Part shown: positions 6,709 to 44,139 of the stretch, in pieces
Numbering within the stretch: the stretch's first letter is position 1
Layout of the letters: every line of letters starts with the position of its first letter
Origin: a bacterium
GTDB taxonomy: Bacteria > Chloroflexota > Dormibacteria > Aeolococcales > Bog-877
Assembly (NCBI GenBank): GCA_021791415.1
Contig: JAJYWQ010000044.1
Coordinates: 12,401-76,400 of the forward strand
Reading direction: 5' to 3'
DNA: 64,000 bases
Made by a program: the position numbers and the translations under genes
Notes under the pieces: generated by a model
Told to the model about the DNA's origin: nothing
What the model saw: only the letters and a program-made list of their open reading frames with translations
The model's database searches: none

Positions 6709-8100
6709 TCACGGTCCGGTCCTGGTGGGCACCATGACCCCCAGATTGCTCGCCGGACCATTGAGGGCCGGGCCGCTGGTGGAGGGCGGCGTGTAATTCT
6801 GCTGCTGATTGATGAGCATGTGGTTGGTGATCAGGAAGGGGCCCCGGCTGTCCTCGCGGATGTAACCCATCAGAGCCATGATCAGGGAGATGGCCACCCC
6901 CACGGTGATGAGGGAGATGGCCTGTCCCCGCCCGGCGTCCCCCCAGTGCAGCCGGCCTCGGGAGAGATGGACGGCGTAGACGGTGATCGCGGTGATGGTC
7001 ACCCCGGTGAAGACGATGAGGGCCGTGAGCTTCCAGGGGATCATCTGCCCCCAGGGGATGAGCAGCCCCCCCTGCCAGATGGGGACATTGGCGTTGGCGG
7101 CGAAGACGCTCTCGTAGCTCCAGGCCAGCGACGAAGGGGTGGAGATCAGCAACCAGGCCGCGAAGGAGAGAGCGGTGCACACCGCCAGCGCCGGCGAGCG
7201 GAAGCCGCTGACCCGAACCCGGCGCCAGAGGTAGAAGATCCCCACGGTGAAGATCGCCCCCAGGAGGAACACCTGGAAGAGGAAGGCCACCGACAGCCCG
7301 CCCAGCATCATCTCGTACCAGGAGGCATAGGCGTGGAGCTGGATCTCCTTGGCGTACTCCCACCCGACCAGGGGCTGGGCGATCGTGAACCCCACCGCCC
7401 ACATCAGCCCGTAGTGGCCCATCCAGTCCAGGTAGGCACGATGCAACTGCTGCCGGGAACGCCAGAGCAGGCGGATCCCCGCCACCAGCGCCACCATCGC
7501 CCCGGCGAAGGCGATGTTGCCGACGAAGCGGTGCATCTCCAGAGGGATCTCTGTGGGGTTCATGAGGATGAGCGGCAGGTTGAAGGCCGGACGGGGCGTG
7601 AGCATGTAGGAGGCCACCACGTTGATCATCAGCATCTGGATGCTGGCGTTGATGAAGAGGAGGATCTCCAGCCCCACCCGCAGCCCCCTCACCCGTCCCA
7701 GCCGGTCCCAGCGCGCATAGAGCGGGTAGAGGCAGATGATCTCGCCGACGAAGGCGGCGGCCTCGGCCACGAAGGGCCAGAACAGGATCCTCTCCAGGGT
7801 CACGAAGAAGTGGCTCCAGAGCCCCAGGAAGAGGATCATCACCGCGAAGATCGCCAGGGAGCCTCCCACCGCGAAGGTCGCCCCCAGGACGGTGACCAGC
7901 CCCTTGGAGAAGCGGTCGTAGTGGGGGTTGCGGCGCTTCCAGCCCATGAAGTCCGTGACCGCCAGGATTATGTACCCGCCCTGCTGAAAGGCCGCGAACT
8001 GAATGTGGCCGAGCATCAGCAGGGCGACCAGGGCGGTCGCCACGCCGGTGGAGATCGGGACCGGGGTGAGCTGGGGGGTGGAAGCGAGGATCAAGTGCAT
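6709..8100 (-). CDS. Cytochrome bd-family subunit I (CydA-like) paralog 2
   Basis: Polytopic membrane protein with the CydA signature WDRLG (PLYARWDRLGRVRGL). Start is 1 nt after the cytochrome b stop. Confidence 0.7.
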   Translation of the reverse strand: MHLILASTPQLTPVPISTGVATALVALLMLGHIQFAAFQQGGYIILAVTDFMGWKRRNPHYDRFSKGLVTVLGATFAVGGSLAIFAVMILFLGLWSHFFVTLERILFWPFVAEAAAFVGEIICLYPLYARWDRLGRVRGLRVGLEILLFINASIQMLMINVVASYMLTPRPAFNLPLILMNPTEIPLEMHRFVGNIAFAGAMVALVAGIRLLWRSRQQLHRAYLDWMGHYGLMWAVGFTIAQPLVGWEYAKEIQLHAYASWYEMMLGGLSVAFLFQVFLLGAIFTVGIFYLWRRVRVSGFRSPALAVCTALSFAAWLLISTPSSLAWSYESVFAANANVPIWQGGLLIPWGQMIPWKLTALIVFTGVTITAITVYAVHLSRGRLHWGDAGRGQAISLITVGVAISLIMALMGYIREDSRGPFLITNHMLINQQQNYTPPSTSGPALNGPASNLGVMVPTRTGP

Positions 8101-10058: not shown

Positions 10059-11401
10059 GGGAGGGTCCCCGGCGGAGCGTTGAAGTTCTGCGCCGACTGG
10101 TGCAGGGTGAGCAGGCAGGAGGCCTGGCCGGTGCCAGCGTCTATGCCGCAGGGGAGCTTGGCATTCTCCTTCACGACCCCCATGAAGATGGTGAGGGCCA
10201 GCGCCGCCACGGCCACCGCGCCCATGGCCCGCGGGACCAGGGGCGCGAGCGGGACTGCAGCTCCCCCCCGGCGCACCTCCACGAGGTAGCGGCCAAGGTT
10301 GATCGCGGTGGCGATGAACGCCACGAAGAGTGCCGTGTAGCGCAGCCACACGAGACCTGGAGGGAGGACGGCGGCGGGCAGCGCCGTGCCCGCCATCCCC
10401 AGCAGGGAGATCGCGGTCAACCCGGCGCCCGGCCCGGAGGATGGCCCCCGGTGCAACCAGAAGACGAGGTTCGCCCCCACCACCACCACCGCCAGAAGAC
10501 CCACCTGGCCGATGAACATGCTTCCCGAGTTGAAGACGAAGAGGTTGTCGAAGGCCCCGATAGAGCTGGTCTTGATCGCCTCGGCCAGAAGGAACCCGGA
10601 GATAGGCTGGGCCAGGAGGAAGATCGACCCGATGGCGAAGGTGACCCGGCTCGTCCAGGTGTGGTACTGGCGCTCCTCCTCGGTCTTGGCACGCCTCGCC
10701 CTCCAGACGGCGATCGCCGCCAGCACCAAAGCCGACCAGGAGAGGGTGGCCCCGGCGTAGTGCAGCAGCAGCCAGGGGTAGCTCGGGGAGTACATGGCGT
10801 GGGCCGCGCTGACCGCCGTCCCCGGGGTCAGGGCAAAGCTGTCCAGCTGGACGATCATGAAGAGGAAGAGGTACTGGATCAGGGCGAAGGTGAGCCCCAC
10901 CGCCAAGTGCAGCCTGGGCCCCAGTCGATCCCAGCCGTACACGTAGAGCAGCAGCAGGGGGATGCCCACGAAGAAGCTGGCGAAGGCGATGGTCAGGGGC
11001 AGCAGCAGGAGGTTGAGCAGGGTGCCGATCAGGCGGCCGTAGAGCCCGGTCAGCAGCACCACCGCGAAGACCGCCCAGGTGGCCCCGAAGCTGTACAGAT
11101 AGAGGACCGAGTGCGACAGCCCGCGGGCATAGCGAAGGCAGTTGGGGCTGGCCCCGGGGCGCCTCCCGGCCAGCTCCATGAAGGGGGCGATCCCGGCAGC
11201 CCCGAGGATGTAGCCCACGATGGCGATGTGGATGAGGAAGGTCGCCCCGATGGCGAATTCAGCCCCCAGGGTGCCCAGAGGCAACCGGGGTTGTGGGCTC
11301 GGGAAGGCAGACAGCAGCACTGGAACCCAATGCTGACGGGCTGAGGGGGCCGAAGGCAAGCCGGGAGCGGCGCGGCGATAATCGACAGGTGCCGGAGCCA
11401 T
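10055..11401 (-). CDS. Cytochrome bd-family subunit I (CydA-like) paralog 1
   Basis: YVYGWDRLGPRLHLAVGLTFAL matches the CydA GWDRLG region. Nine or more TM helices. Start uncertain: the 11401 ATG overlaps the holA start, alternative GTG about 11320. Confidence 0.7.
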   Translation of the reverse strand: MAPAPVDYRRAAPGLPSAPSARQHWVPVLLSAFPSPQPRLPLGTLGAEFAIGATFLIHIAIVGYILGAAGIAPFMELAGRRPGASPNCLRYARGLSHSVLYLYSFGATWAVFAVVLLTGLYGRLIGTLLNLLLLPLTIAFASFFVGIPLLLLYVYGWDRLGPRLHLAVGLTFALIQYLFLFMIVQLDSFALTPGTAVSAAHAMYSPSYPWLLLHYAGATLSWSALVLAAIAVWRARRAKTEEERQYHTWTSRVTFAIGSIFLLAQPISGFLLAEAIKTSSIGAFDNLFVFNSGSMFIGQVGLLAVVVVGANLVFWLHRGPSSGPGAGLTAISLLGMAGTALPAAVLPPGLVWLRYTALFVAFIATAINLGRYLVEVRRGGAAVPLAPLVPRAMGAVAVAALALTIFMGVVKENAKLPCGIDAGTGQASCLLTLHQSAQNFNAPPGTLP

Positions 11402-12339
11402 TGGTCCTACTCCACGGAGAGGACCGCTACCTGGTCACCGAGGCCGCGGCGTCCCTCCGCGATCAACTGGTGGCGGAGATGGGGTCCGAACTGGGGCTGG
11501 AGGAGTTCCGGGACCTCTCTGACGGGGACGCCATCGAGAGGAGCCTGGCCAGCCCCCCGTTCCTGGCGCTGCGCCGGGTGGTGGTCCTCTGGGACCCGCA
11601 GGTCGGGCCCCGCGGGTCGCGAGAGACCGAGGACCTACTCCGCGCGATCTCCCACCGGGCAGACACCACGGCGGTGATCGTCGTGGTGCGGGCCCTGGTT
11701 CCGGCCACCAACAACCTGCCTCGCGGCCTGCGCGAGCTCGGAGCGGAGGTGCGGCTGGTCCCGCGGCCCAAGGGCGCCGCGCTCCGGCATCACGTCGATC
11801 AGCGCGTGCGGGCCCACGGCCTCAACCTCGCCGCCCAACTATCGCCGAAGCTGGTGGAGATCGCCGCTGAGAGCCTGGGCCGGCTGGAGATGGAGCTGGA
11901 CAAGCTGGCGCTGTATCCCGACAGGGCCGGGGAGCCGGTCGGCGAGGAGGTGGGCTACCGGCTCCTGACCCCGGTGCCCCCGCGCGAGCTCTACCGGCTG
12001 ACAGATGCGATCTTCGAAGCGCCCAGCCGGGTGGGAAGCCTCCTCTCCGGGCTGCTTTCGCGCCCCGAGGTGCCCCCCCAACTGGTGATCGGTGCGCTGG
12101 CCAGGGCCCTCCGGGACCTCATCGCCGCGGCCGACGGCGGCTCCGGCGCCCTCCCGTCCTGGAAGGCCGAGCGGATGAGTCGCCAGTTGAGACGAGCCGG
12201 GGCACCGCGGCTGCGCCGCTGGCTGGTGGCCCTGGCCGACCTCGACTGGGAGATTCGCGTGGGTCGACTTGACGCCATCCAGGGGCTGGAGACGTTACTG
12301 GCCCACATGGCGGCGGAGCTGTCGCCCCGCGCCGGCTGA
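11389..12339 (+). CDS. holA: DNA polymerase III delta subunit
   Basis: PLVLLHGEDRYLVTEAA N-terminus. Conserved holA-rpsT neighbourhood. Confidence 0.6.
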   Translation: MPEPLVLLHGEDRYLVTEAAASLRDQLVAEMGSELGLEEFRDLSDGDAIERSLASPPFLALRRVVVLWDPQVGPRGSRETEDLLRAISHRADTTAVIVVVRALVPATNNLPRGLRELGAEVRLVPRPKGAALRHHVDQRVRAHGLNLAAQLSPKLVEIAAESLGRLEMELDKLALYPDRAGEPVGEEVGYRLLTPVPPRELYRLTDAIFEAPSRVGSLLSGLLSRPEVPPQLVIGALARALRDLIAAADGGSGALPSWKAERMSRQLRRAGAPRLRRWLVALADLDWEIRVGRLDAIQGLETLLAHMAAELSPRAG

Positions 12340-12341
12340 CC

Positions 12342-12764
12342 TCAGTCGCGCTCCGCTTCGGACCCCGCGCTGCGCCGGCTCCGCTGCGCCGTGCGCACCG
12401 TCTTGGTGACGGGCTTGGCCTTGCCTGCCGCAGTCTTCCGCTGCGAGGCGGTGGACTTGGACCTCGTGCCCTGCGCCGCGCCGCGCCGCGCGCCGCCCGC
12501 AGTCTGAACGGCGGTGGCCGCGGCCAGGGCACGCATCAGCCGCGACTTGCGCCGGGCCACATTGCGCGGGTGGAGCACCCCGTGCTCGGCCGCCTTGTCC
12601 AGCGCCGAGGTGGCGAGACGACCGAGCTCCGGCGCCTCCTCCCCGCCCACGGCGCGGCGAGCCTTGGCCACCGCTGTGCGCACCGCGGAGCGCACGGAGC
12701 GATTCCGATCGTGCTTGCGCTCGGCGGCGCGGACCCGCTTGCGAGCTGAACTGGTGTTGGCCAA
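12342..12764 (-). CDS. rpsT: 30S ribosomal protein S20 with a basic C-terminal extension
   Basis: MANTSSARKRVRAAERKHDRNRSVRSAVRT. TTG start. Confidence 0.85.
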   Translation of the reverse strand: MANTSSARKRVRAAERKHDRNRSVRSAVRTAVAKARRAVGGEEAPELGRLATSALDKAAEHGVLHPRNVARRKSRLMRALAAATAVQTAGGARRGAAQGTRSKSTASQRKTAAGKAKPVTKTVRTAQRSRRSAGSEAERD

Positions 12765-12858
12765 GGCTGTCCCCGTTTAGCGCCCCAGGGGGCGAACTGA
12801 ATCTAGCGCTCGACGCGCCCCGTGCCCGGCCAGTATACGGCAGCGGGGACTGGCGGAA

Positions 12859-13740
12859 GTGGCGGGTAAAGTAGGCCGGATGCTGGACGTCGCCCAGGCC
12901 CCCGCCAAGCTGAACCTGGCCCTGGAACTGGTGGGCCGGCGCGCCGACGGCTTTCACCTCCTGACCGCTGTCTCCCAGACCGTGGCCTGGAGCGACCTGG
13001 TGGCCGCCGAGCTGGACCGCGGTCAGAACACCCCCGGAGAGATCTCGGTGGCGGTCAGGGGGCCCTTCCGGGATGGGGTGCCTGAGGGGCCCGACAACAT
13101 AGTGGCCCGGGCCGCCGCCGCCCTCCACCGCCGCGGGGTGGGCCGCGAGGTGGTGTCGGTGGCGATCTGGAAGCGCATACCCACCAAGAGCGGCCTCGGC
13201 GGCGGGTCGGCCGACGCCGCGGCGGTGCTCCGGCTCGCCGCCGGCGACGACCTGGCCGCGCGTCTCGCCGACGTGGCCCTCGAGTGCGGCGCCGACGTGC
13301 CGTTCGCTCTCCGCGGCGGAGCGGCCCTCCTGGGCGGGGTGGGTGAGGTGCTCACTCCCCTCCCCCATCTGGCACCGACGGTGATCCTGGTGGCGGTGCT
13401 GGGGGCCGTGGAGACCGCCCGGGCTTACTCCTCGGTCCAGAGCGAGGAGATGACGGACGGAAGCCGGGCCGCGGCGGTGGCCCAGGCCCTGAGGAGAGGG
13501 GAGCTGCCATCCCCGGAACTCTTGGGCAGCGCCCTCGAGGCCGCCGCCCTGCGGGTGGCCCCCGAGCTGGAGCCGCGGCTCGAGCGGCTGCGCGCCGCCA
13601 CACCACATCTGAGCTGGGCGATGACCGGAAGCGGCGGGGCGTTCTTCGCGCTTGCCAAGCCCGCCGAGGCGGGGCCGGCGCTGGCCGCCTGCCGGGCCGC
13701 GCTGCCGGGCCTGCCGATTCGCGCCACGGCGCCGGCATGA
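12859..13740 (+). CDS. ispE: 4-diphosphocytidyl-2-C-methyl-D-erythritol kinase
   Basis: APAKLNLALELVGRRADGFHLL and KRIPTKSGLGGGSADAAAVL GHMP kinase motifs. Start GTG 12859 or ATG 12880. Confidence 0.8.
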   Translation: MAGKVGRMLDVAQAPAKLNLALELVGRRADGFHLLTAVSQTVAWSDLVAAELDRGQNTPGEISVAVRGPFRDGVPEGPDNIVARAAAALHRRGVGREVVSVAIWKRIPTKSGLGGGSADAAAVLRLAAGDDLAARLADVALECGADVPFALRGGAALLGGVGEVLTPLPHLAPTVILVAVLGAVETARAYSSVQSEEMTDGSRAAAVAQALRRGELPSPELLGSALEAAALRVAPELEPRLERLRAATPHLSWAMTGSGGAFFALAKPAEAGPALAACRAALPGLPIRATAPA

Positions 13741-29398: not shown

Positions 29399-29653
29399 TC
29401 AGCCGGAGGGTGTCCCGGGCCCTTGCTCGTCCCGGCGTGCCCTGCGGCCCGGGGTGCCGTCCAGGGTGAGGGCCAGCGCCGGGCATGCCCCCACGCTGCG
29501 ACGAACCCGCCGCCCAAGGTCATGTGGCAGTGGGTCGGGGGAGATGATCGGGTAGCCGAAGTCGTCCAGGGTCACGAGCTCAGGCAGCATCTCGGCGCAA
29601 AGCCGGTGGCCCACGCAGAGGGTGGGATCCACGTGCAGATAATGGCGGCTCAC
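29399..29653 (-). CDS. Small [3Fe-4S]/[4Fe-4S] ferredoxin
   Basis: VDPTLCVGHRLCAEMLPELVTLDDFGYP. GTGA overlap with the NuoF-like stop. Confidence 0.6.
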   Translation of the reverse strand: MSRHYLHVDPTLCVGHRLCAEMLPELVTLDDFGYPIISPDPLPHDLGRRVRRSVGACPALALTLDGTPGRRARRDEQGPGTPSG

Positions 29654-30948
29654 CGCGGATGCGCTACGGGCGGCAGCGGCAGCGACGACTGCCGGTGGCC
29701 CCCGCAAGCTCCCTTCCGGTGGCGCTGCAGCTCCTCTGGGAAGGCCACCGCCGCCGAGCGGGCGAGGTTCACCGCACCGTCCGGGTGGCGGCAGGCACCT
29801 CTTCCCTCGATCTGGTCGCCCCACCGTTGCAGCTGCGCCAGCGCCTCTACAGACCCGTTGTCGGCCACCTCGTTCAGCGCCGAGGCCATGGCCGGAAGAC
29901 CGAAGGCACACGGCCCACACTGGCGGGCTCCCTGCGCCGCCAGCCAGGCCAGGACCCGCCCTGACTCCCGCAGCCCGCACGTACCCCGGGGAAGGAGGTG
30001 GAGGACCCCGGCACCGGGAGTCGCCCCGGCCGGACGGAGGCTCGCCCGGGACAGAGCGAGGCCCTGGACCTCCGGCGCTCTGAGCCAGGAGCCGAAGTAG
30101 CCGCCCACCAGCAGCGCGACCGCCTCCGGGTCGGCACCGGCCACCTGGAGGATTTGCGGAAGCGGGGTGCCGATGGGCACCTCGTAGACCCCGGGCCCCT
30201 CCACCGCACCGCTGAGGGTTACGAGCATGGTGCCGGGCTCATCGGCGAGCCCTAACCCCCGGAACCAATCCGGGCCGAGCCGGAGCACCAAGCCGAGGTG
30301 GGCGAGGGTCTCGACGTTCTGCACCAGGGTGGGCTGCCCCCGCCAGCCCCGGTCGACCACCCGGGGCGGCTGGTACCGGGGGAGGGCTGGCCCGCCCTCC
30401 AGCCAGCGAATCAGAGCGGACTCCTCGCCGCCCACGAAGTTCGCCGGCCCGCGCACCACGTCGACTGGGAGAGTGAGGTCCTGGCGCTCTCGCATAGCCG
30501 TCCGCACCGCGGCCAGCGCCGGAGCTGAGTGGGCGACCAGGAAGGCCTGCCGGGCTCCGAGGATCCTGGTGACCGCCAGCAACCCGTCCAGGACCAGATG
30601 CGGCCGGAGGCGGAGGAGAAGATCATCCTTGCCCGCCACCGGTTCGGTCTCCGACCCGTTCACCACTACCACAGATCCCGGTCCATGGCGGCGCACGGCG
30701 GCCAGCTTGTCAGAGGTCGGGTAACCGCCCCCTCCCCGTCCGCGCAGCCCGGAGCGCCGCAACCGATCGAGGAGCTGATCGGGCCCCGCCCTTCCCGTCC
30801 AGTCGGTGATGTCTCCCCCCAGCCTGCTCACGTGGTGGACCAGCGGCTCAGCCCCGCCCAGCCTGGATCCGGCCAGGAGGCGCTTGGTCCACGGGCCGCT
30901 CCGGGGCAGATCGAGGTCCAACTCCGCCGCCGTGGCCAGCAGGCTCAC
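29650..30948 (-). CDS. NuoF (complex I 51 kDa subunit)-like NAD(H)-binding Fe-S flavoprotein, stand-alone
   Basis: GRGGGGYPT nucleotide-binding motif. C-terminal CGPCAFG...C 4Fe-4S motif. ATGA overlap with the upstream gene. Confidence 0.65.
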   Translation of the reverse strand: MSLLATAAELDLDLPRSGPWTKRLLAGSRLGGAEPLVHHVSRLGGDITDWTGRAGPDQLLDRLRRSGLRGRGGGGYPTSDKLAAVRRHGPGSVVVVNGSETEPVAGKDDLLLRLRPHLVLDGLLAVTRILGARQAFLVAHSAPALAAVRTAMRERQDLTLPVDVVRGPANFVGGEESALIRWLEGGPALPRYQPPRVVDRGWRGQPTLVQNVETLAHLGLVLRLGPDWFRGLGLADEPGTMLVTLSGAVEGPGVYEVPIGTPLPQILQVAGADPEAVALLVGGYFGSWLRAPEVQGLALSRASLRPAGATPGAGVLHLLPRGTCGLRESGRVLAWLAAQGARQCGPCAFGLPAMASALNEVADNGSVEALAQLQRWGDQIEGRGACRHPDGAVNLARSAAVAFPEELQRHRKGACGGHRQSSLPLPPVAHPR

Positions 30949-32057
30949 GAGTCCTGGCCTCCGTCCCCGCCGGCTGGGCCGGCGGCGACACTGCCCAAGT
31001 ACAGCAGCCCCGAGACCGAGGAGGCGGGCACCGGGCCGTTCATCGTCAGCTCGGCCGGCATTGCGGCACCTCCACGGGGGGCGAGCCTGAAGATCAGGGA
31101 GCCCGGCCCAACCGACACGACCGCGCCCGTGTAGATCTGCGACCCCGTGGCCGGCCGGTAGGTGACAGCGCCCCGGTCAACCGCGAGGGATCCGCCCGGG
31201 AGCTGATTGGCGACCAGAGAGACCATCAGCTGGCCTCCGGCTCCCCCCTGCACCCTGCCGGAGATGCTGATCGTCTCCACCTGGCCACTCGGGGAGGAGG
31301 TCGCCGAGCCCAGGAAGCTGGCAGTGAATGGAGCCAGGGCGGGCGGCCTTCCCCGGGCTCCGGCGGCGGTGGGCGCTCCCGAGGCAAGTGCGGTGGTGGG
31401 AGTCCCCGCTCGACGGGCCCAGCCGCTCTGCAACGGCCCGGCCGCCGACCAGACCAGGACGGCCATGGGAGTGGCCGCGGCGGCCGCCATGAGAAGGACC
31501 CGCACTCCAGCACGGTACCGGTTGGCCCGGCCAACTCGGAAGATAACGGTCGCCGCCACCAGTCCCACGCACCCCACCTCGAACCCGAAGACCCAGGTGA
31601 GCCTGGTGTCAGTACCGGTGCCGAGGGAATGGAGGACGGCAACGGGCCAGGAGAGATAGGTCAGCCAGTGGATCACCCGCCACCAACGGAGCCGCAGGTG
31701 GGATCGCAGGAGGCTGGTGACCACCACAGCGGCAATGAGGTCCAGGCTCAGGCTGCCGAGCCCCAGCCAGAACGGCCGGTAGGGACTCACGAACGGCACC
31801 AGCGCCGCCCACCAGCCGACCGGGACGAACGGGTCCAGCTCGATGGTGACTACGTGGATGACCAGGAGCACCACCGCCAGCAGGGCAAGGTTGCGATGCA
31901 CCGCCTGGACGGCGAACCGCGGCCAGGCCCCGGGGTGCCACCCCCCCTGGATGGCGATCCCCAGGACGAGATTGGCCGTGAGCACCGCCAGCAGCACCAG
32001 CCCGCTGCCGCGGGCCAGGTACCAGAGCGTCATCGGTCCACCGAGGGCTGCGGCCAT
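30945..32057 (-). CDS. Ferric-reductase-like transmembrane haem protein (MsrQ/FRD-type, six TM with paired His) plus an extracytoplasmic C-terminal domain
   Basis: MTLWYLARGSGLVLLAVLT...HRNLALLAVVLLVIHVV...HWLTYLSWPVAVLHSL. C-terminal roughly 180 aa is Ser/Thr/Gly-rich and non-membrane. Confidence 0.5.
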   Translation of the reverse strand: MAAALGGPMTLWYLARGSGLVLLAVLTANLVLGIAIQGGWHPGAWPRFAVQAVHRNLALLAVVLLVIHVVTIELDPFVPVGWWAALVPFVSPYRPFWLGLGSLSLDLIAAVVVTSLLRSHLRLRWWRVIHWLTYLSWPVAVLHSLGTGTDTRLTWVFGFEVGCVGLVAATVIFRVGRANRYRAGVRVLLMAAAAATPMAVLVWSAAGPLQSGWARRAGTPTTALASGAPTAAGARGRPPALAPFTASFLGSATSSPSGQVETISISGRVQGGAGGQLMVSLVANQLPGGSLAVDRGAVTYRPATGSQIYTGAVVSVGPGSLIFRLAPRGGAAMPAELTMNGPVPASSVSGLLYLGSVAAGPAGGDGGQDS

Positions 32058-32059
32058 CC

Positions 32060-33040
32060 TCAGCGTCCAGCCTGGCCAGCCAGGGGTACGAGCTCCTCAC
32101 CCTGGGAGGGCCAGCCGCCGCAGTGGACGACCCGACCATCCGCGGACACCAGCCGGGCCGCGGCGCGAAACCTGGCCAGGAGAGCCTCAGCGAGCTCACC
32201 TCCGACCAGGGCTGCGGTGGACAGGGCATTGGCCCGCAGGCAGCTGTCGGCGACCACGGTGGCCGTCTGCCAGCGACCTCGGGCCGGACGCCCCGTGCGG
32301 GGATCGATCAGATGGTGCATGGACATCCCCTGACGGAGCCAGCGCCGGACTGCGGTCGAGGAGGTCGCCAGGCCGCGGGCGAAAAGGCTGACCGTCTGCC
32401 CCGGCTCGTCCTCGCCCCCCAGATGGTCGTCGGCGATCCGGACCGTCCAGCCACCGGCAGGCACCGGGCCCGAGGTGGCGATATCCCCTCCCAGGCTCAC
32501 CAGGCAGGCGGCTCCCGCGGCCGCCCCGGCCAGCGTGGCGGCGCGATCTGCGGCCCAGGCCTTGGCCGTCGCACCAAGGTCCAGCAGCAGGCCGGGGGGG
32601 CGAGTGAGGACCTGACCCTCGAGCTGTACCCGGTGCCAACCGGGAGCCGGCCCTGAGGGAGCGACAGGTGCGCTGGCGCGCTCCTGGAGCTGGGAGAAGT
32701 CGCGGTCGTACCCTGCTGCCAGGAGCGCGGCGCCGACGGTGGGGTCGAAAAGACCGCCGGTCTCTCGCGACCAGTGGAGGGCATCGGCCAGCAAGCCAGC
32801 CAGCTCGCGGCTAACAAAGATCCTGAACCGGGGATCCGAGTTGACCCGGGAGAGTTCGGAGCCCGGCTTGAACCGGCTGGCCAGGTCGTCGACCCGGGCG
32901 ATCACCCGGTCGGCCTCCGTCAACGCCGGAGCCAGCTGGTGCCCGCCGGCCACCAGGACCCGTGCCGTGGTGCCGAGCGCGGGCCGCCACGCACCGGCGA
33001 CACCGGGGATGTTGGCCAGGCGGGCCCAACCCCCGTCCAC
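32060..33040 (-). CDS. apbE: FAD:protein FMN transferase (ApbE)
   Basis: LDLGATAKAWAAD and SLGGDIA...HHLIDPRTGRP motifs. Start overlaps the upstream small ORF stop (TGAGTG). Confidence 0.75.
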   Translation of the reverse strand: MDGGWARLANIPGVAGAWRPALGTTARVLVAGGHQLAPALTEADRVIARVDDLASRFKPGSELSRVNSDPRFRIFVSRELAGLLADALHWSRETGGLFDPTVGAALLAAGYDRDFSQLQERASAPVAPSGPAPGWHRVQLEGQVLTRPPGLLLDLGATAKAWAADRAATLAGAAAGAACLVSLGGDIATSGPVPAGGWTVRIADDHLGGEDEPGQTVSLFARGLATSSTAVRRWLRQGMSMHHLIDPRTGRPARGRWQTATVVADSCLRANALSTAALVGGELAEALLARFRAAARLVSADGRVVHCGGWPSQGEELVPLAGQAGR

Positions 33041-33343
33041 TCAGGACCCGCCGGAGGTGACCACCGGCGGGGCGGTCGCCGGAGCAGGGGCGACGCCGCC
33101 ACCGGAGGTCGCTCCCCCACTTGGAGAGCCGGATGTCGCCCCTCCAGCGGAGGAGCCGGACGCCGGCGTGGAAGCCGCAGGACTGGTCACGTGGGCGCTC
33201 CGGCCCGGGATGGCGTTGGCCACGGCAGCCGCCACCGCCCCTGTCCCGGCCATGGCCGCCAGGGTGAGCCACACGGTGGCCCGCCTCACCCTGGCTTCGC
33301 CCCGGCTCCGCTCTTGCTGGCTGAAGCGAGGTGTGTATGCCAT
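33041..33343 (-). CDS. Small membrane-anchored Ser/Gly/Thr/Ala/Pro-rich protein (100 aa) with tandem SGGATSG motifs
   Basis: N-terminal anchor VWLTLAAMAGTGAVAAAVANA, then ...GSSAGGATSGSPSGGATSGGG.... High GC3. Coupled to apbE. Confidence 0.4.
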   Translation of the reverse strand: MAYTPRFSQQERSRGEARVRRATVWLTLAAMAGTGAVAAAVANAIPGRSAHVTSPAASTPASGSSAGGATSGSPSGGATSGGGVAPAPATAPPVVTSGGS

Positions 33344-33365
33344 GGGGCGATGGTGCCATTAGAAG

Positions 33366-33440
33366 CTGGGATTCGATCCCAGAGAACGCTGGGAGTATCC
33401 TGGGCCGAGTTAACGCAAGCCAGTTGCGCAACCGGCTTGC
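33366..33440. promoter_or_regulatory. Two palindromes in the divergent promoter between the ApbE operon and the Fur-family gene (±2 bp)
   Basis: CTGGGATtcgATCCCAG (about 33366-33382) and GCAAGCC-AGTTGCGCAACC-GGCTTGC (about 33415-33440, contains the 10 bp palindrome GTTGCGCAAC). Candidate -35 TTGCGC, 17 bp, then TATGAT. Confidence 0.35.
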
Positions 33441-33443
33441 TTT

Positions 33444-33884
33444 ATGTATGATGTGGCCATGGGCAGAAGGCCGAAGATCGCGGGAGCGGTTCAGGAACTT
33501 ATGGCGGCGCGGGGCCGGCACACCTGGACGCTGGAGGAACTCCGGCAGGCTCTGGCCGCCAAGGGAATCCGCGCCGACTTCTCTTCGGTGTTCCGGGCCA
33601 CCGCGCGACTGGAGACCGAAGGAGCGCTCCGCCGGGTGGAGTTGGACGATGGCCGCACTCATGTCGAGATCCAGGACGAGCACCATGACCACTTCCGGTG
33701 CGAGCTGTGCGGCGAGGTCCTGGCAGTCCCCTGCGAAGCTTCGGGGGCGGCCATGCGAGCCCTGGAGGACGCCACCGGCCTCAAGATTCATGACCATCAC
33801 CTGGTCCTGACCGGTATCTGCCAGGCCTGTCGGGGTGGGCCTTCGGTGCAGATGGTGCCGAGCGCGGCGGGTGCGGCATCGTGA
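33444..33884 (+). CDS. Fur-family metalloregulator (Zur/Nur/Fur-like)
   Basis: HTWTLEELRQAL...HHDHFRCELCGEVLAV...C...C. Possible leaderless start at the second ATG (about 33459). Confidence 0.75.
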   Translation: MYDVAMGRRPKIAGAVQELMAARGRHTWTLEELRQALAAKGIRADFSSVFRATARLETEGALRRVELDDGRTHVEIQDEHHDHFRCELCGEVLAVPCEASGAAMRALEDATGLKIHDHHLVLTGICQACRGGPSVQMVPSAAGAAS

Positions 33885-34816
33885 TCGGGGCGGTGGTCAA
33901 CCTATGGGACCCGGTGCACGTCACCGGGGTGGCGATCTTCGTGACCGCGCTGATCCTGGGCATGGTCCATGGGATCACCCCGGACGAGCACACCTGGCCG
34001 ATCACCTTCAGCTACGCCATCGGCAGCTACTCCACCAAGCGGGGCTTCCGATCGGGCCTGATCTTCTCGCTCGCCTTCACGCTGCAGCGGGCAATCGCCG
34101 CCGAGCTGGCCTACCTGGGCTTCACCCGGATCCTCACCCTGGCGGGCGCCGACTATGCGATCTACGTAGTCGTAGGGATACTCATGGCCTGGGCGGGGCT
34201 GATGATCGTCAGGCGGGGCCGGCTACCCTTCCACTTCCACCTGCACATCCCCTGGCTGCAGAAGGACGCCGCCTTGGTGCACTCGGGGCAGGAGTTCCCC
34301 ACCCCCGGCTGGGTGCAGGACCCGCGGCCCTGGATGCCCGCCGTCCATGGCTTCGTGGCCGGATGGGGCTTCGGTGCCTTCGCCATCATCATCTACACGG
34401 TGCTGGCTCCGGCGATGCCCTCGCCGTTACTGGGGTGGGTGCCAGGGGCACTCTTCGGGATCGGGACAACCATCGTCCAGGTGCTGGCCGGCGCCGCCTT
34501 CGGCCGTTACGCCTCCCGGCGCGGACTTCCTCCGGAGGCCGTCCGGCAAGTGGCCCTCACGGTCGCGGGACGGACGCTCACCTGGGGAGGGCTGGCCTTC
34601 ATCGTGGGGGGCGTCTTCGGCCTGAGCTTTCCCCAGATCGCCAACCTCAGCTTCGCAACCGGCGTCCAGGTCCACAACCTGGATCAGATCGGCATGCCGC
34701 TCTTCCTGGTGGTGTTCGCCGTGGTCGGAGTGGGCCTCACATCCCTGATCCGGGAGACCAGGTCCTGGTCTCGGAGGCAGGCGGCCCAGGTGGCTTCCGC
34801 CTCGCATCCGGCCTGA
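33881..34816 (+). CDS. Polytopic membrane protein, putative metal-cation transporter (NicO/HupE-UreJ-like)
   Basis: 8 TM. His-rich loop motifs VHGITPDEHTW and HFHLHIP. GTGA overlap with the Fur-family gene. Confidence 0.45.
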   Translation: MIGAVVNLWDPVHVTGVAIFVTALILGMVHGITPDEHTWPITFSYAIGSYSTKRGFRSGLIFSLAFTLQRAIAAELAYLGFTRILTLAGADYAIYVVVGILMAWAGLMIVRRGRLPFHFHLHIPWLQKDAALVHSGQEFPTPGWVQDPRPWMPAVHGFVAGWGFGAFAIIIYTVLAPAMPSPLLGWVPGALFGIGTTIVQVLAGAAFGRYASRRGLPPEAVRQVALTVAGRTLTWGGLAFIVGGVFGLSFPQIANLSFATGVQVHNLDQIGMPLFLVVFAVVGVGLTSLIRETRSWSRRQAAQVASASHPA

Positions 34817-36308: not shown

Positions 36309-37001
36309 TCAGCCCCGGGGCAGTCGCAGAACGTACCCCATGCCCCTCACGGTGTGGATGAGCGGCGGATCGAAGGCGTCCACCTTCTTGCGCAGGTAGC
36401 TGATGTAGGTCTCCAGGATCCCGGCGTCGCCGCCGAAGTCATAACTCCACACGTGGTCGAGGATCTGGGCCCTTGTCAGCACGCGGCGGGCGTTGATCAG
36501 CAGGTAGCGGAGGAGCCGATACTCGGTGGCCGTGAGCTCGATCGGGTGCTCGCCCCGGCGCACCTCGCGCAGGTCCTCGTCCATCTCCAAGTCCGCGAAG
36601 GTGAGGATGTTGCGGCTCTCTTGGCGGTGCCCGCTGCGTCTGAGGATGACCCTAACACGGGCGATCAGCTCGTCAAGGCTGAAGGGCTTGGTGACGTAGT
36701 CGTCCCCCCCTACCGTGAGCCCGCGGACCTTGTCCTCCGTCGCGTCCTTGGCGGTCAGGAAGAGGATCGGCACGTCTATCCCGGTCGCCGCCACAGTCCG
36801 GGCCACCTCGAAGCCGTCCTGATCCGGGAGCATGACGTCCAGGATCACCAGGTGGGGCTTGAACTGACGGACCTTTTCCAGGGCCTCTCTGGCGCTCCGC
36901 GCCGTCTCGGTGTCGAAGTCGGCGTAGCGGAGCGCGGTGGAGACCAGTTCGACCAGGTTGAGCTCGTCGTCCACCACCAGCACCCGAGTGCGCTCACCCA
37001 C
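36309..37001 (-). CDS. OmpR-family response regulator
   Basis: RVLVVDDELNLVELV...ILDVMLPDQDG receiver. Winged-helix C-terminus (HTVRGMGYVL). ATGA overlap with the kinase. Confidence 0.85.
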   Translation of the reverse strand: MGERTRVLVVDDELNLVELVSTALRYADFDTETARSAREALEKVRQFKPHLVILDVMLPDQDGFEVARTVAATGIDVPILFLTAKDATEDKVRGLTVGGDDYVTKPFSLDELIARVRVILRRSGHRQESRNILTFADLEMDEDLREVRRGEHPIELTATEYRLLRYLLINARRVLTRAQILDHVWSYDFGGDAGILETYISYLRKKVDAFDPPLIHTVRGMGYVLRLPRG

Positions 37002-37191
37002 GCGCGAATTGTGGCCCCATTTGCTGAGAGTTGGCTGGGCGACATCTGAGCCGGCTGCGTGGGTACTCCGAGCAAATTCTCAGGCCGATCACAGCGCCCC
37101 CCCAGCTCTGGGGATCAGAGTGGCAGCTGTCGCCGGCACGGGCCCTGCGGGCCGGTCCGGCGGCAGCCCTATCCTTCCCTCCCCGCAGCGG

Positions 37192-37220
37192 CCCGGCACC
37201 AGCCGGGTCGCTGTATTTTT
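37192..37220 (+). terminator. Plus-strand intrinsic-terminator-like element: GC hairpin followed by a T-tract
   Basis: CCCGGCaccaGCCGGGtcgctgTATTTTTgtg. A T5 run is rare at this GC content. Lies in a 480 bp non-coding gap (37002-37485) upstream of the OmpR-type regulator. Confidence 0.3.
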
Positions 37221-37485
37221 GTGCCCTGTTCGACGCCCCGGCACGGGTCGAAGCGCCCTCCAGGGGCGCGGGGGATCGCCGGGGAGTCCGCCGCTCGAGG
37301 CTCCTTGGCTGGAGTTGGGGGGCGGCCCCGCCACCCACCAACGGGGAAGGCACGTACTGCTGATCTGGCCGCTCCCGTTGCCGGCCGTGACCGTCCACGA
37401 GTGAAGCCACTTCGTCGTCCTGCGCCGCCTCGCGGCGCGGCCACTTCCCGCCATGGGCCTCCTCGACCCAGGCTGGGCTGGATCG

Positions 37486-38211
37486 TCAAGCGGATCCTCC
37501 GGCAACTCCAAGCTGCACTGTCAAGACATGCCTTGCCAACAATGTGCCCGTCAGCTCCGTCTGGCACCTGACTATGCTCCCGAACTCTCGGCCGATCAGC
37601 GCAGTCCACACGTCTCCGCAGGGATGGACGATGGCAGCGTAGTAGGTGGTCACCACTGCCAGCGGCCGAGGTTTGGCACGAATGAACCATCCTTCCGGCT
37701 TGGCCTCGACTGAGTCCATCTCCACCGACGACAGGACCATGGCGGGATCTAGCATCTCTCGAAAATGTGGATCGCGGCAGATGTCTCCGTCATGGAGCCA
37801 CCCCGCTCCGCGATCCCTCGGCCCGAGGTGGTTGTACGGATCCTCCACCTCCTCTGAGCGGCCACTGTGCCGTACGACGTTCCACCCGTTGCGGGTGGCA
37901 CTCAGTTTCTCCTCGCACGACCACTCAACCGCCCCGCCGTACCCAGGGTCCTCAATCCACTGCTCCAAGGTTTGGGACGCCCCACCAGGGTGGCCGAAGA
38001 GCCGGCAACCGGAGATTGCTGCCCAGGGGTTCCTCCATGCGGGAGGAGGGAGCGGGAATCGGCCCCGGGCCACCAACAGGCCTTCCCTCTCATACCTCAC
38101 CCGGACCTGCGCTCGAAACCGGGCTCCTTCCCACCCTTGACCTGACTCGAGCATCCGTTCGACCACGTCTTCCCAAGTCAGGTCGACCTCCGAAACAGGT
38201 GGCCTTTCCAC
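37486..38211 (-). CDS. Hypothetical protein (241 aa, Trp/acidic-rich) on a lower-GC island
   Basis: Protein-like composition (MERPPVSEVDLTWEDVVERMLESGQGWEGARF...). Local GC about 60% and reduced GC3 versus neighbours. 5 nt downstream of the preceding ORF. Confidence 0.45.
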   Translation of the reverse strand: MERPPVSEVDLTWEDVVERMLESGQGWEGARFRAQVRVRYEREGLLVARGRFPLPPPAWRNPWAAISGCRLFGHPGGASQTLEQWIEDPGYGGAVEWSCEEKLSATRNGWNVVRHSGRSEEVEDPYNHLGPRDRGAGWLHDGDICRDPHFREMLDPAMVLSSVEMDSVEAKPEGWFIRAKPRPLAVVTTYYAAIVHPCGDVWTALIGREFGSIVRCQTELTGTLLARHVLTVQLGVAGGSA

Positions 38212-38216
38212 TGCAG

Positions 38217-38798
38217 TCAGTGCCGTCTCTGAGTTGGCGCAGACAGCCAGTCCAACGTGCTACGCAGCCCGCCCCACGCTTCCGATCGCGTCTCCACGTC
38301 AACAAGGGCTCCGAGATGCCAATCCAGGGTTGCCAGCCAGTTGTCAGCGTCACAGTCGACGACACGGCACGAATCGTGGTCACAGGTCCGGGGCCTCGGC
38401 CGGGCTCGAAGCCTCACTCGTTCTCCCGACGCCTCAGCCGAGAAGTCACACAGGAACGCGAGGAAGAGCGCGGGGTCGAGGTGTTCTACCACCGTCCGCG
38501 CCTCATGACTCTCCCACCAGGCGCCACCTCCACCACCTCGACTGGGCCTCCCCGGCCGAGGGTCCTCAACCACCTCCCATGACCCGCCCTTAACCGATAG
38601 CGTCATCGTTCGTACCCACGGCTCAACCCTTGCCAATGCGGGTCCCGGAACTCCGCGCTGGTCGCGATATTGGGTGACTCGCGCGACAAAGTCCATCTCC
38701 CGCAGCAGTCGTGGGGCGATCAACAACCTAGCCACCACGGCTCCGGCCGCCATGGGGCGCCACTCCCGAATCGCGTCTGCAGGCCGCGCCGACGGCAT
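38217..38798 (-). CDS. Hypothetical protein (up to 193 aa) on the lower-GC island. Start uncertain (internal Met MDFVARV possible).
   Basis: Contains CDHDSCRVVDCDADNW Cys/Asp cluster. No recognisable family. Confidence 0.4.
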   Translation of the reverse strand: MPSARPADAIREWRPMAAGAVVARLLIAPRLLREMDFVARVTQYRDQRGVPGPALARVEPWVRTMTLSVKGGSWEVVEDPRPGRPSRGGGGGAWWESHEARTVVEHLDPALFLAFLCDFSAEASGERVRLRARPRPRTCDHDSCRVVDCDADNWLATLDWHLGALVDVETRSEAWGGLRSTLDWLSAPTQRRH

Positions 38799-38984
38799 CT
38801 AGTGGCAGCCAGCTACCAGCCCGCTGGCGTGCGGGCCATCGACGAGTCCTTGTCGATGCGGATGGCCAGCACGGCGGGCCCCGGCTCGACCGTCATGACC
38901 ACCTCACCACCTGCAAGACGGCGATCCAGTGCCTTAGTGCCTATTCGCACCGACCCCGGGTCCAAGCGGCCTGACCGGCCAAAG

Positions 38985-39899
38985 TCATCCCCAGAGCGCC
39001 TCCACCGAGAGGTAGCGCTCGCCGCTGTCGTACGTGAAGGTGAGTACCCTGGCGCCGTCCGCCATCTGCGGCTCCAACGACGCCACAGCCGCCAGCGACG
39101 CGCCGGAAGAGATCCCCACCAGAACCCCCTCCTCCCGAGCCGACCGGCGGGCATAAGCGAACGCCTCATCTGCGGACACCTGGATCACTCCGTCCAGAAG
39201 GTCCTGACGCATAATCCCCGGCACGAACCCGGCACCGATCCCCTGGATTGGATGCGGGCTGTGGGTGCCCCCAGACAAGACCGGGGACAGCTCCGGCTCG
39301 ACCGCGTACACCTTGAGCGCGGGCCATCTCTTTTTCAGCACCTCGGCACACCCGGAGAGGTGCCCTCCGGTGCCCACTCCTGTGACCAGGTAGTCCAGCC
39401 CCTCGGGGAAGTCCGCGGCGATCTCCTCGGCGGTGGTCCGGCGGTGGATGTCGACGTTGGCGGGGTTGTCGAACTGCATGGGCATCCAGGCTCCCGGGGT
39501 CTCCTCGACCAGCTCCCGGGCCCGGGCGATGGCCCCCCTCATCCCCAGCTCTCTCGGGGTGAGGTCGATCTCGGCCCCGTAGGCCGCCATCAGCTTGCGC
39601 CGCTCCACCGAGAACGACTCGGGCATCACCAGGATCAGGCGGTACCCCTTGACGGCGGCCACCATGGCGAGACCCACACCGGTGTTCCCCGAGGTGGGTT
39701 CGACGATGACCGACCCTGAATTGAGGATCCCACCCCGCTCAGCGTCTTCCACCATGGCGAGGGCGATCCTGTCCTTGATGCTGCCCCCGGGGTTGACCCT
39801 CTCCTGCTTGAACCAGACCGTGACCCGGCGGTCGAAGAGGTGGTTGATCCGCACCACCGGAGTTCTGCCGATGGTCTCAAGGATGCTCTCGGCTCTCAC
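38985..39899 (-). CDS. cysK: Cysteine synthase A (O-acetylserine sulfhydrylase)
   Basis: [13 protein letters not shown]...[16 protein letters not shown]...[14 protein letters not shown] fold. Confidence 0.85.
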
Positions 39900-39933: not shown

Positions 39934-40770
39934 TCAGATGACGAAGTCGGGAGGGTCCAGCATCTCCCCCACTTGGCGGACCCGCACCTGACTGGAATGG
40001 TAGACGAGGGAGTAGGGGCCGACGCTGCTGGTCAGCCAGACGTTGCCGCCGACAACGCTGTCGTGCCCGACCACGGTCTCGCCGCCGAGGACGGTGGCGT
40101 TGGCATAGATCACAACCCGGTCCTCGATGGTGGGATGGCGCTTGGTGCCGCTGGCGCCCTTGGCGACGCTGAGGGCGCCCAGGGTGACCCCCTGATAGAG
40201 CTTGACGTCGTCGCCGATGACCGCGGTCTCGCCCACCACGATCCCTGTCCCGTGGTCGATGCAGAGGGCTCGCCCGATCGAGGCGCCGGGATGGATGTCG
40301 ATTCCGGTCCGAGCGTGCGCCACCTCGGCGAAAAGCCGAGGGAGCACGGGAAGGCCCTGATGGTGGAGGTGGTGGGCAACCCGGTGAGTGGCCATGGCCA
40401 GGAAGCCGGGATAGGCGGAGATCACCTCGTCCAAACTCTCCGCGGCGGGATCCCCCGCCAGGATCGCCTCAGCGTCCCGGGCCACCTGCTCCCGGATCAC
40501 CCCCAGGGAGGACAACAGCTGCTCGGACACCGTCCGGCCCTGCCGCTCATCCACGATCCCCCGCACCAGTTCGCACAGGCGGCCCTGAAGGTCCCGGAGG
40601 CCAGCCAGAATGTCTCCTGGCTCGCGGATGACCGTAGATGCCAGCTGGGGGAAGAGGAGCCCCAGGAGGTCGTCCATCCAGCCTTCGACCTCCCGGCGCA
40701 GCGGTATCGCGCGGCTTCCTCCGCGGTGGGCGGCGGCTAGTTCCCTGACGAGGTCGGGAGCTTGGTCCAC
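39934..40770 (-). CDS. cysE: Serine O-acetyltransferase
   Basis: [43 protein letters not shown] hexapeptide repeats. The N-terminal roughly 60 aa of the track ORF is the antisense read-through of a tRNA, so the start was moved to GTG about 40770 (uncertain). Confidence 0.75.
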
Positions 40771-40884
40771 ACTCCGATTCTCCCAGCAGCGGCCGTCCCG
40801 GCGGCCGTGGGGATCGGTCCCTTCGGATGGCCCGACCCAGACTGGGAACCGGATCGGACCGGCTATCATCGACCAGGACGACTT

Positions 40885-40957
40885 GGGGCCGTGGCGCAGC
40901 GGCAGCGCGCTTCCTTGGCATGGAAGAGGTCGCGGGTTCAATTCCCGCCGGCTCCAC
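40885..40957 (+). tRNA. tRNA-Ala (anticodon GGC)
   Basis: Cloverleaf: acceptor GGGGCCG/CGGCTCC with G3:U70. Anticodon stem CTTCC/GGAAG, loop ttGGCat. T-loop TTCAATT. Confidence 0.8.
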
Positions 40958-41037
40958 TTCACGCCCTCACTCGAAACCTCGACATGGAGTCTGCCGGTTC
41001 GGCCGGGGAATCGCTCTCGATCCGGCCGGTTGCCGAG

Positions 41038-44063: not shown

Positions 44064-44139
44064 GGGGCGATAGCTCAGCTGGCAGAGCGCTGCTTTCGCA
44101 CGGCAGAGGTCAGGGGTTCAAGTCCCCTTCGCTCCACCA
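44064..44139 (+). tRNA. tRNA-Ala (anticodon CGC), CCA encoded
   Basis: Acceptor GGGGCGA/TCGCTCC with G3:U70. D-arm GCTCAGCTGGCAGAGC. Anticodon loop ttCGCac. T-loop TTCAAGT. Followed by the GGTCGCCgcgGGCGACC hairpin. Confidence 0.8.

Follow-up and report, generated by a model that had tools for sequence, protein, structure and literature searches.

A two-gene islet in a Dormibacteria contig is probably a horizontally acquired end piece of a rare operon

The stretch of DNA analysed here (the window) spans 64,000 nt of contig JAJYWQ010000044.1 (GCA_021791415.1, forward-strand positions 12,401-76,400) and comes from a bacterium of the Bog-877 lineage (Aeolococcales, Dormibacteria, Chloroflexota). 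Between cysK and a two-component operon, which encodes a response regulator (RR) and a histidine kinase (HK), lie two adjacent minus-strand open reading frames (ORFs), orfA and orfB, whose products we call A and B (Table 1). Positions given without a locus name are window coordinates; L-numbers stand for metagenome loci and P-numbers for proteins of the A-B family. An earlier note on this DNA had described a lower-GC island with two ORFs of 241 and up to 193 aa, 5 nt apart. Both exist, and the second is most likely 178 aa long. The note had put the GC of the island at about 60% with a relaxed GC content at third codon positions (GC3). The relaxed GC3 was borne out, at 0.69-0.71 in orfA and orfB versus 0.87 in the HK gene and the values listed in Table 1 for the RR gene and cysK, and the island is the lowest 1.3 kb within the 64 kb. 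The GC figure itself was slightly overstated, since the island has 64.3% against a window mean of 69.8% (standard deviation 2.3%, 1.3-kb windows) and its lowest 400-nt stretch 62.5%. Because the other low-GC stretches of the window hold a GC3 of 0.85-0.94, the relaxed GC3 is unique to the A-B spot within the window. In base and codon composition the islet deviates from the flanking core genes.

The start of orfA was placed at the ATG at 38753, because the homologues start there (it is common to all of them), a GGGAG sequence lies 9 nt upstream, and the 45 nt above this ATG diverge by 24% from the copy of the pair in locus L001, versus about 10% within the gene. On the same grounds the 193-aa start was rejected, and the in-frame extension is probably an untranslated leader. 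No terminator-like site was found between cysK and orfA; we propose for this reason that orfA-orfB is probably transcribed by read-through from cysK. Neither protein has a hydrophobic segment or a signal peptide (maximum Kyte-Doolittle value over 19 residues, 1.25). The Trp and acidic richness that had been ascribed to one protein holds in part: both are Trp-rich (4.1-4.5%), and the orfB product is only mildly acidic (pI 5.6).

Judged by the way their sequences evolve, orfA and orfB are real genes. Against the L001 copy, which is 89% identical, the ratio of nonsynonymous to synonymous substitution rates (dN/dS, Nei-Gojobori) is 0.32 for orfA and 0.28 for orfB, versus 0.5-1.7 in the five other reading frames of the block and 0.7-1.7 in the antisense frames. 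The two copies show no indel across 1234 nt at 10% divergence, and third codon positions take 64 of the 119 substitutions. An exhaustive HMMER search with concatenated A+B against 1.84 billion cluster representatives reached homologues down to 20-30% identity, and homologues of orfB, fused A+B proteins included, were present at 20-50% identity in several lineages. It could be argued that the ORFs are spurious, either chance frames or the shadow of a 271-aa plus-strand ORF (37767-38582), since long ORFs are plentiful in high-GC DNA and long-contig gene callers pass over both genes. With purifying selection confined to the annotated frames and with protein homologues in several lineages, we regard this as almost certainly wrong. 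The antisense 271-aa ORF was rejected as a true gene by the frame-specific dN/dS.

Both genes are intact in 8/8 same-species contigs, which derive from different samples and metagenome-assembled genomes (MAGs), and the copy in one of them (L012) is 100% identical to the window. Within the pair, the same-species contigs differ by seven single-nucleotide polymorphisms (SNPs), three synonymous and four nonsynonymous, a sample too small to support a claim of selection in this host. On contigs L012 and L013 (identical or nearly identical to the window; locus 10915-12917, contigs of 95-131 kb) the public gene calls lack orfA and give orfB as an 84-aa tail only, and the JGI and NCBI calls on other contigs show a 160-aa orfB. 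Pseudogenisation in the strains with these 160-aa or 84-aa calls was considered and rejected, as the DNA is intact and the callers picked internal starts. The atypical codon usage makes the pair largely invisible in MAG annotations.

A and B are related to each other over the whole length of A. Their C-terminal halves share 33% identity over 67 aa (BLASTP, E 3e-6), and hhalign of the A-type alignment (A6) with the B-type alignment (A7) gave a probability of 99% and an E-value of 2.6e-18 over 182 columns, the full A length; orfB is longer than orfA through insertions. Single-chain proteins collinear with A then B exist in P0006/P0035 (429 aa), P0009 (416 aa) and P0016 (429 aa). P0006 spans residues 3-411 of the concatenated A+B, P0009 and P0016 are similar, and the fused form recurs on several independent contigs. 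Where the genes are split they lie close together, as with the 5-nt gap of the window, or overlap, by 4 nt in L100 and by 29 nt in L105. Full-length paralogy together with fusion elsewhere indicates that A and B make up a single functional unit between them. Adjacent, coupled paralogues collinear with single-chain homologues carry the classical two-subunit signature of split and fused tandem paralogues ('Rosetta-stone' pseudo-dimers); unlike a functional family, this is a general evolutionary pattern and is uninformative on activity. In L009, a 229-aa protein (327-1016) encoded directly upstream of the fused P0016 seems to be a third copy of the module that has diverged further. Among all sequences analysed here, it alone shows a hint of likeness to a solved structure, the MucB N-domain (E 0.11).

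The family is small, with 16 representatives among the 1.84 billion proteins. It was not found in 185,579 GTDB species representatives (two scans), in plasmids and phages (tblastn) or in IMG/VR, at the sensitivity of these scans. No Pfam, NCBIfam, PADLOC or PHROG match was obtained for orfA or orfB (PADLOC-DB v2 gave none at E<=1), Pfam was empty at E<=10 for all 15 family members and for the HMM consensus sequences, and NCBIfam was empty for the fused and distant members. The CDHDSCRVVDCDADNW string (CDHDSC..CDADNW), which the earlier note had singled out as a cluster, is present and aligns with DVDAAAALVDCDADLW and similar strings in relatives. Conservation within the family does not extend to its Cys residues, and the string was rejected as a metal-binding site.

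These results also bear on the function that had been suggested, that of an immunity/toxin-like pair or a small defence module. A compact two-gene cassette of atypical composition would suit a toxin-antitoxin or small anti-phage defence pair, and relatives of the pair do sit in accessory regions with PIN-type toxin-antitoxin genes. However, the two proteins are paralogous and are also found as one fused chain, which means that they are not antagonists, and the idea of a toxin-like pair fails on this point. No toxin, antitoxin or defence domain was found in PADLOC, Pfam or NCBIfam; together with the empty PHROG search, this leaves the defence module without a match. Neither a helix-turn-helix (HTH) nor a nuclease motif is present in the pair, and the conserved partner genes described below encode secreted proteins, which are not typical defence effectors. 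We consider a toxin-antitoxin or defence role very improbable.

The same pair was found in an unrelated genomic context. By blastn, a block of 1335 bp is all that the 64-kb window shares with locus L001, which is 12.5 kb long; the flanks are unrelated, and a tblastx comparison of the two returned compositional noise only. In a base-level alignment the homology opens with the final 14 nt of the gene that precedes orfA in L001, named S2 here, and closes 8 nt past the orfB stop. The S2 remnant in the window aligns with the end of the L001 S2 gene, ..ACTGGCTGCCCCTAG (..TGCP*), and no further similarity to S2, or to the S1 gene that lies before it in L001, was found anywhere in the window. With its edges inside S2 and just past orfB, the block identifies the window copy as a truncated copy of a longer operon. 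In L001 the pair closes an island of about 10 kb with low GC3, located between leuA (GC3 0.83) and a GntR gene (GC3 0.94), which also has PIN-domain toxin genes and an HTH_17 gene. A look-alike of a tRNA 3' end, with a T-arm (GGCGGTTCGATCCCGCC), an acceptor strand and CCA, is located on the minus strand of L001 at about 7988-8040, at a distance of 400 nt upstream from S1. It was called by neither ARAGORN nor Rfam and may be what is left of an attachment site of the L001 island.

In the relatives, A-B is the end of a longer gene set. A same-strand S2 gene precedes A-B in five lineages (L001-3, L004-8/L108-9, L100-103, L104 and L105-7), and S1 precedes S2 in three of the five (L001 and two others), the other two having S2-A-B only. 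The gap between S2 and A is 7-45 nt in four lineages and 241 nt in L104, where orfA is possibly mis-called. S2 is a protein of 155-166 aa with an AxA signal-peptidase site, a mature N-terminus SPQIIVPPGFNC, a PHxSxH motif, four conserved Cys residues and a C-terminal GCP. S1 (152-174 aa) is likewise a predicted secreted Cys-rich protein with a signal peptide, a CCG motif and the sequence YLWYYVVDP..CDASTTYYAGYC. Both are 57-68% identical across lineages whose A-B is only about 40% identical. They gave no Pfam or NCBIfam match and no significant PDB match, the best for S2 being an immunoglobulin (Ig) V domain at E 0.12. In three lineages (L001, L100 and L108) mobility or toxin-antitoxin genes lie close to the operon, with a resolvase after it in L100 and two DDE transposases before it in L108. 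Two further lineages lack the S genes: L110 has a split A-B pair, the A gene being uncalled there, and L010/L011 have a fused A-B gene between RNase HII and a carboxyltransferase, with a GC3 of 0.89 versus 0.94-0.97 in the host. The closeness of L010 codon usage to that of its host points to long retention of A-B without S genes. Read from these gene orders, the ancestral operon is S1/S2-A-B.

Table 1. Features of the A-B locus and of related loci (window coordinates unless a locus is named)
Feature	Position	Strand	Description
orfA	38217..38753	-	178 aa; soluble Trp-rich first module of the putative A-B unit; from the ORF list, start at M16 by homologues
orfB	37486..38211	-	241 aa; GTG start 5 nt past the orfA stop; second module of the putative A-B unit
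In-frame extension giving the 193-aa reading (ORF 38217..38798)	38754..38798	-	24% divergence from L001; in no homologue
GGGAG Shine-Dalgarno sequence	38763..38767	-	9 nt upstream of the orfA ATG; conserved in L001
Transferred cassette	37478..38812	-	1335 bp; 89% identical to L001, L002, L003
S2 3'-end remnant	38799..38812	-	last four codons and TAG stop, CTGGCTGCCACTAG
S-protein genes upstream of A-B	L001 8430-9413; L004 1196-2200; L100 410-1483; L104 8906-9373; L105 393-884		motif and signal-peptide reading
cysK, upstream flank	38985..39899	-	TIGR01139, 393 bits, above cut-off; GC3 0.87
OmpR-type response regulator, downstream flank	36309..37001	-	GC3 0.90
Hairpin and purine tract upstream of the RR gene	37171..37215	-	host-native; 91-95% identical in L020, L021

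The atypical codons, the 89% identical block with sharp borders in an unrelated context and the relatives beside mobility or toxin-antitoxin genes agree with the suggestion of the earlier note that the cassette was acquired horizontally. The note had also seen no integrase, repeats or tRNA at the borders, and none were found: the island borders have no integrase, no att sites and no known RNAs, repeats are at chance level only, and the nearest tRNA, a tRNA-Ala(GGC), is 2.1 kb off, past cysK and cysE. On the RR side, host-native DNA resumes by 37215, as shown by a hairpin that is conserved in distant relatives. Read on the minus strand, it consists of a 12-bp stem followed by GGGGAGGGAAGG, about 185 nt upstream of the OmpR-type RR gene. 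Its counterparts lie at L020 4710-4754 and L021 800-842, where the HK is only 55-60% identical and the surrounding intergenic DNA is unalignable. The stem is invariant and the loop variable, a likeness to a plus-strand intrinsic terminator is not conserved, and Rfam gave no match for 37171-37215. This hairpin may act in cis to regulate the RR-HK operon.

An empty site was sought by a metagenome scan with the histidine kinase, which returned relatives at no more than 65% identity; the closest with usable flanks were 55-60% identical, and none had synteny on the cysK side. The presence of the pair in relatives, a check that had been proposed for this locus, gave a divided answer: all eight same-species contigs have the pair, and A-B is absent beside the orthologous RR-HK genes in the nearest other relatives (HK 55-60% identical), but cysK is absent there too. 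As to evolution and architecture, we consider it highly likely that the rare S1-S2-A-B operon reached the window by horizontal transfer in truncated form, that A and B are paralogous halves of one soluble protein, and that the toxin-antitoxin and defence readings are wrong.

Such a copy might be a functionless, hitch-hiking remnant of the S1-S2-A-B operon that has not yet decayed. The loss of S1 and S2 with a junction that cuts S2, a GC3 without drift toward the host value, the rejection of both genes by gene callers trained on the whole contig and the population SNPs (4 nonsynonymous : 3 synonymous) would all fit a remnant. Nevertheless, neither ORF is disrupted in any of the eight contigs, comparison of the window lineage with that of L001 gives a dN/dS of about 0.3 and not one indel, and A-B is kept without S genes elsewhere, in one lineage near the host codon usage, which implies long retention. 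We think a remnant unlikely, although it deserves more weight than a toxin-antitoxin pair or a catalytic role for B.

The catalytic role would make orfB an enzyme acting through His196, Asp200 and Cys216 (motifs AIVHPxGDxW and CxT), with orfA as a degenerate, non-catalytic paralogue and the S proteins maybe as substrates or products. These three residues are nearly invariant in B-type sequences and are replaced in the A-type module, and an asymmetry of active and degenerate residues is typical of enzyme/pseudo-enzyme pairs. However, His196 and Gly199 are replaced by L and D in P0005, which is the closest outgroup, and Cys216 is replaced by Ala in P0014. We know of no Cys/His hydrolase that matches the H-x3-D-x15-C spacing in predicted beta-strands, and no Pfam, NCBIfam or PDB match was obtained, profiles and consensus sequences included. 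An enzymatic B has, in our opinion, a poor chance of being right. The A-B unit is probably not an enzyme, because these three, the only catalytic candidates, are absent from A and lost in some B members.

A statement about fold, compatible with the explanation favoured below, is that each module is a half-barrel like LolA or the MucB/RseB N-terminal domain (PF03888), binding a hydrophobic ligand or a lipoprotein tail. The likeness is short and local: a helix LDPxLVL, a beta-hairpin ending PR/P and a 'W.x.vD...G.l' strand pair occur in the A-B family. The 229-aa protein of L009 is a probable distant paralogue (hmmsearch 13.6 bits, rank 2/5001 against shuffles; hhalign E 1.4e-3), its three best PDB matches are all MucB (E 0.11) with LDPAMVL..GETRLAGRPAHRLVARP, the site of the LDP-helix/hairpin motif of the family, aligned to MucB residues 89-123, and by our own reading the helix-hairpin-'W.a.vD...G.l' pattern of the family resembles that RseB region. 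On the other side, the hhalign probability for this bridging paralogue is only 18%, and no member, consensus or profile matches MucB_RseB, LolA or a related Pfam family at E<=10, and none matches a PDB chain. Against the family profiles, an RseB sequence did no better than shuffles. A and B have no signal peptide and would be cytoplasmic, whereas LolA, RseB and MucB are periplasmic. The LolA/MucB-like fold is a tentative proposal, possible and some way short of probable.

Among the known systems that come closest are orphan genes for immunity proteins or partners that belong to loci for secreted toxins and bacteriocins, cassettes of polymorphic-toxin style on mobile islands. As in those loci, the A-B genes of relatives lie directly downstream of co-oriented secreted-protein genes with short gaps or overlap, the family is tiny, fast-evolving, patchy and carried on accessory DNA, and the window has the downstream genes without the secreted-protein genes. 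Unlike in those loci, S1 and S2 are not known toxins and A-B matches no known immunity family; at about 420 aa in total, duplicated and without a membrane or export signal, A-B would be unusual as immunity to a Sec-exported protein. In this form the immunity idea survives as a hypothesis only: the A-B unit would serve the secreted S1/S2 proteins, whose genes precede it in relatives, as a partner or an antidote.

The explanation that we favour overall, with moderate confidence, is that the window contains a horizontally acquired islet with the distal half of a rare operon from uncultured high-GC bacteria, A-B being the orphaned partner of the S proteins. Of the operon, which in L001, L100 and L108 sits among resolvase, transposase or toxin-antitoxin genes, the window received A-B alone, with a junction in the last 14 nt of S2 and a landing between cysK and the two-component operon. 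A and B would act as one soluble cytoplasmic two-module protein, which would most likely work by binding, with a partnership with the co-encoded S proteins as the best guess. The more precise form, to which we give low confidence, makes A-B a cytoplasmic pseudo-dimer without enzymatic activity that binds the secreted S proteins, serves them as antidote, chaperone or regulator, and is orphaned here. More speculative still, and less probable than the remnant, is an undescribed mobile S1-S2-A-B module in which secreted, disulfide-rich, Ig-like S1 and S2 may act on neighbours or on the envelope of the producer, a duplicated cytoplasmic A-B of new fold would be the antidote or sensor, and the window would have an orphan antidote from a co-resident lineage. 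A locus of the window type, with A-B only beside cysK (L016), and the full S1-S2-A-B locus L001 are both from sample ERZ27237452; a literature search on the assembly and sample accessions found no papers.

Several points weigh against the favoured explanation. The partnership with the S proteins is drawn from conserved gene order, since S1 and S2 match no described family, and a cytoplasmic partner for Sec-exported proteins is no obvious arrangement. The structural check that the earlier note had advised did not yield a recognisable fold for A or B: run against the PDB, single sequences and the profiles A3, A5, A6 and A7 drew only noise, such as FliT and a de novo beta-sheet design, and AlphaFold2 from 3-sequence alignments gave predicted local distance difference test (pLDDT) values of 30 and 37. 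The few SNPs cannot carry a claim of selection in this host, as said above. Finally, no empty-site genome was found among the contigs searched, all eight same-species contigs having the pair, so that the timing and direction of the transfer are read from composition and context.

Some other features of the window were noted. The listed 342-aa ORF of cysE (39934-40962) crosses the opposite-strand tRNA-Ala(GGC) at 40885-40957; cysE itself spans about 39934-40677 (247 aa), the extent given by the gene call on L012. Another tRNA, tRNA-Ala(CGC), is located at 44064-44139. On the other side of the two-component operon, a 5.4-kb block (29400-34800) is an indel relative to L020 and L021, where the HK gene runs straight into a GH63-like gene (window 28.7-29.4 kb). 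It encodes a 311-aa membrane protein, FUR, ApbE, a 370-aa protein, a NuoF-like protein and Fer4, and its GC3 is normal, unlike that of the A-B island.

Small islets of hypothetical genes that arrived by horizontal transfer are an ordinary phenomenon. This one is unusually clean, since the donor-type operon, the breakpoint in S2 and both the split and the fused forms are visible. Gene callers trained on the genome drop such genes, and the family is mostly hidden in MAG annotations. The A-B family and the two linked families of secreted proteins, S1 and S2, are newly defined here and have no database description. If the S proteins should turn out to be effectors with A-B as their partner, the operon would represent a new module of inter-bacterial competition or of the envelope.

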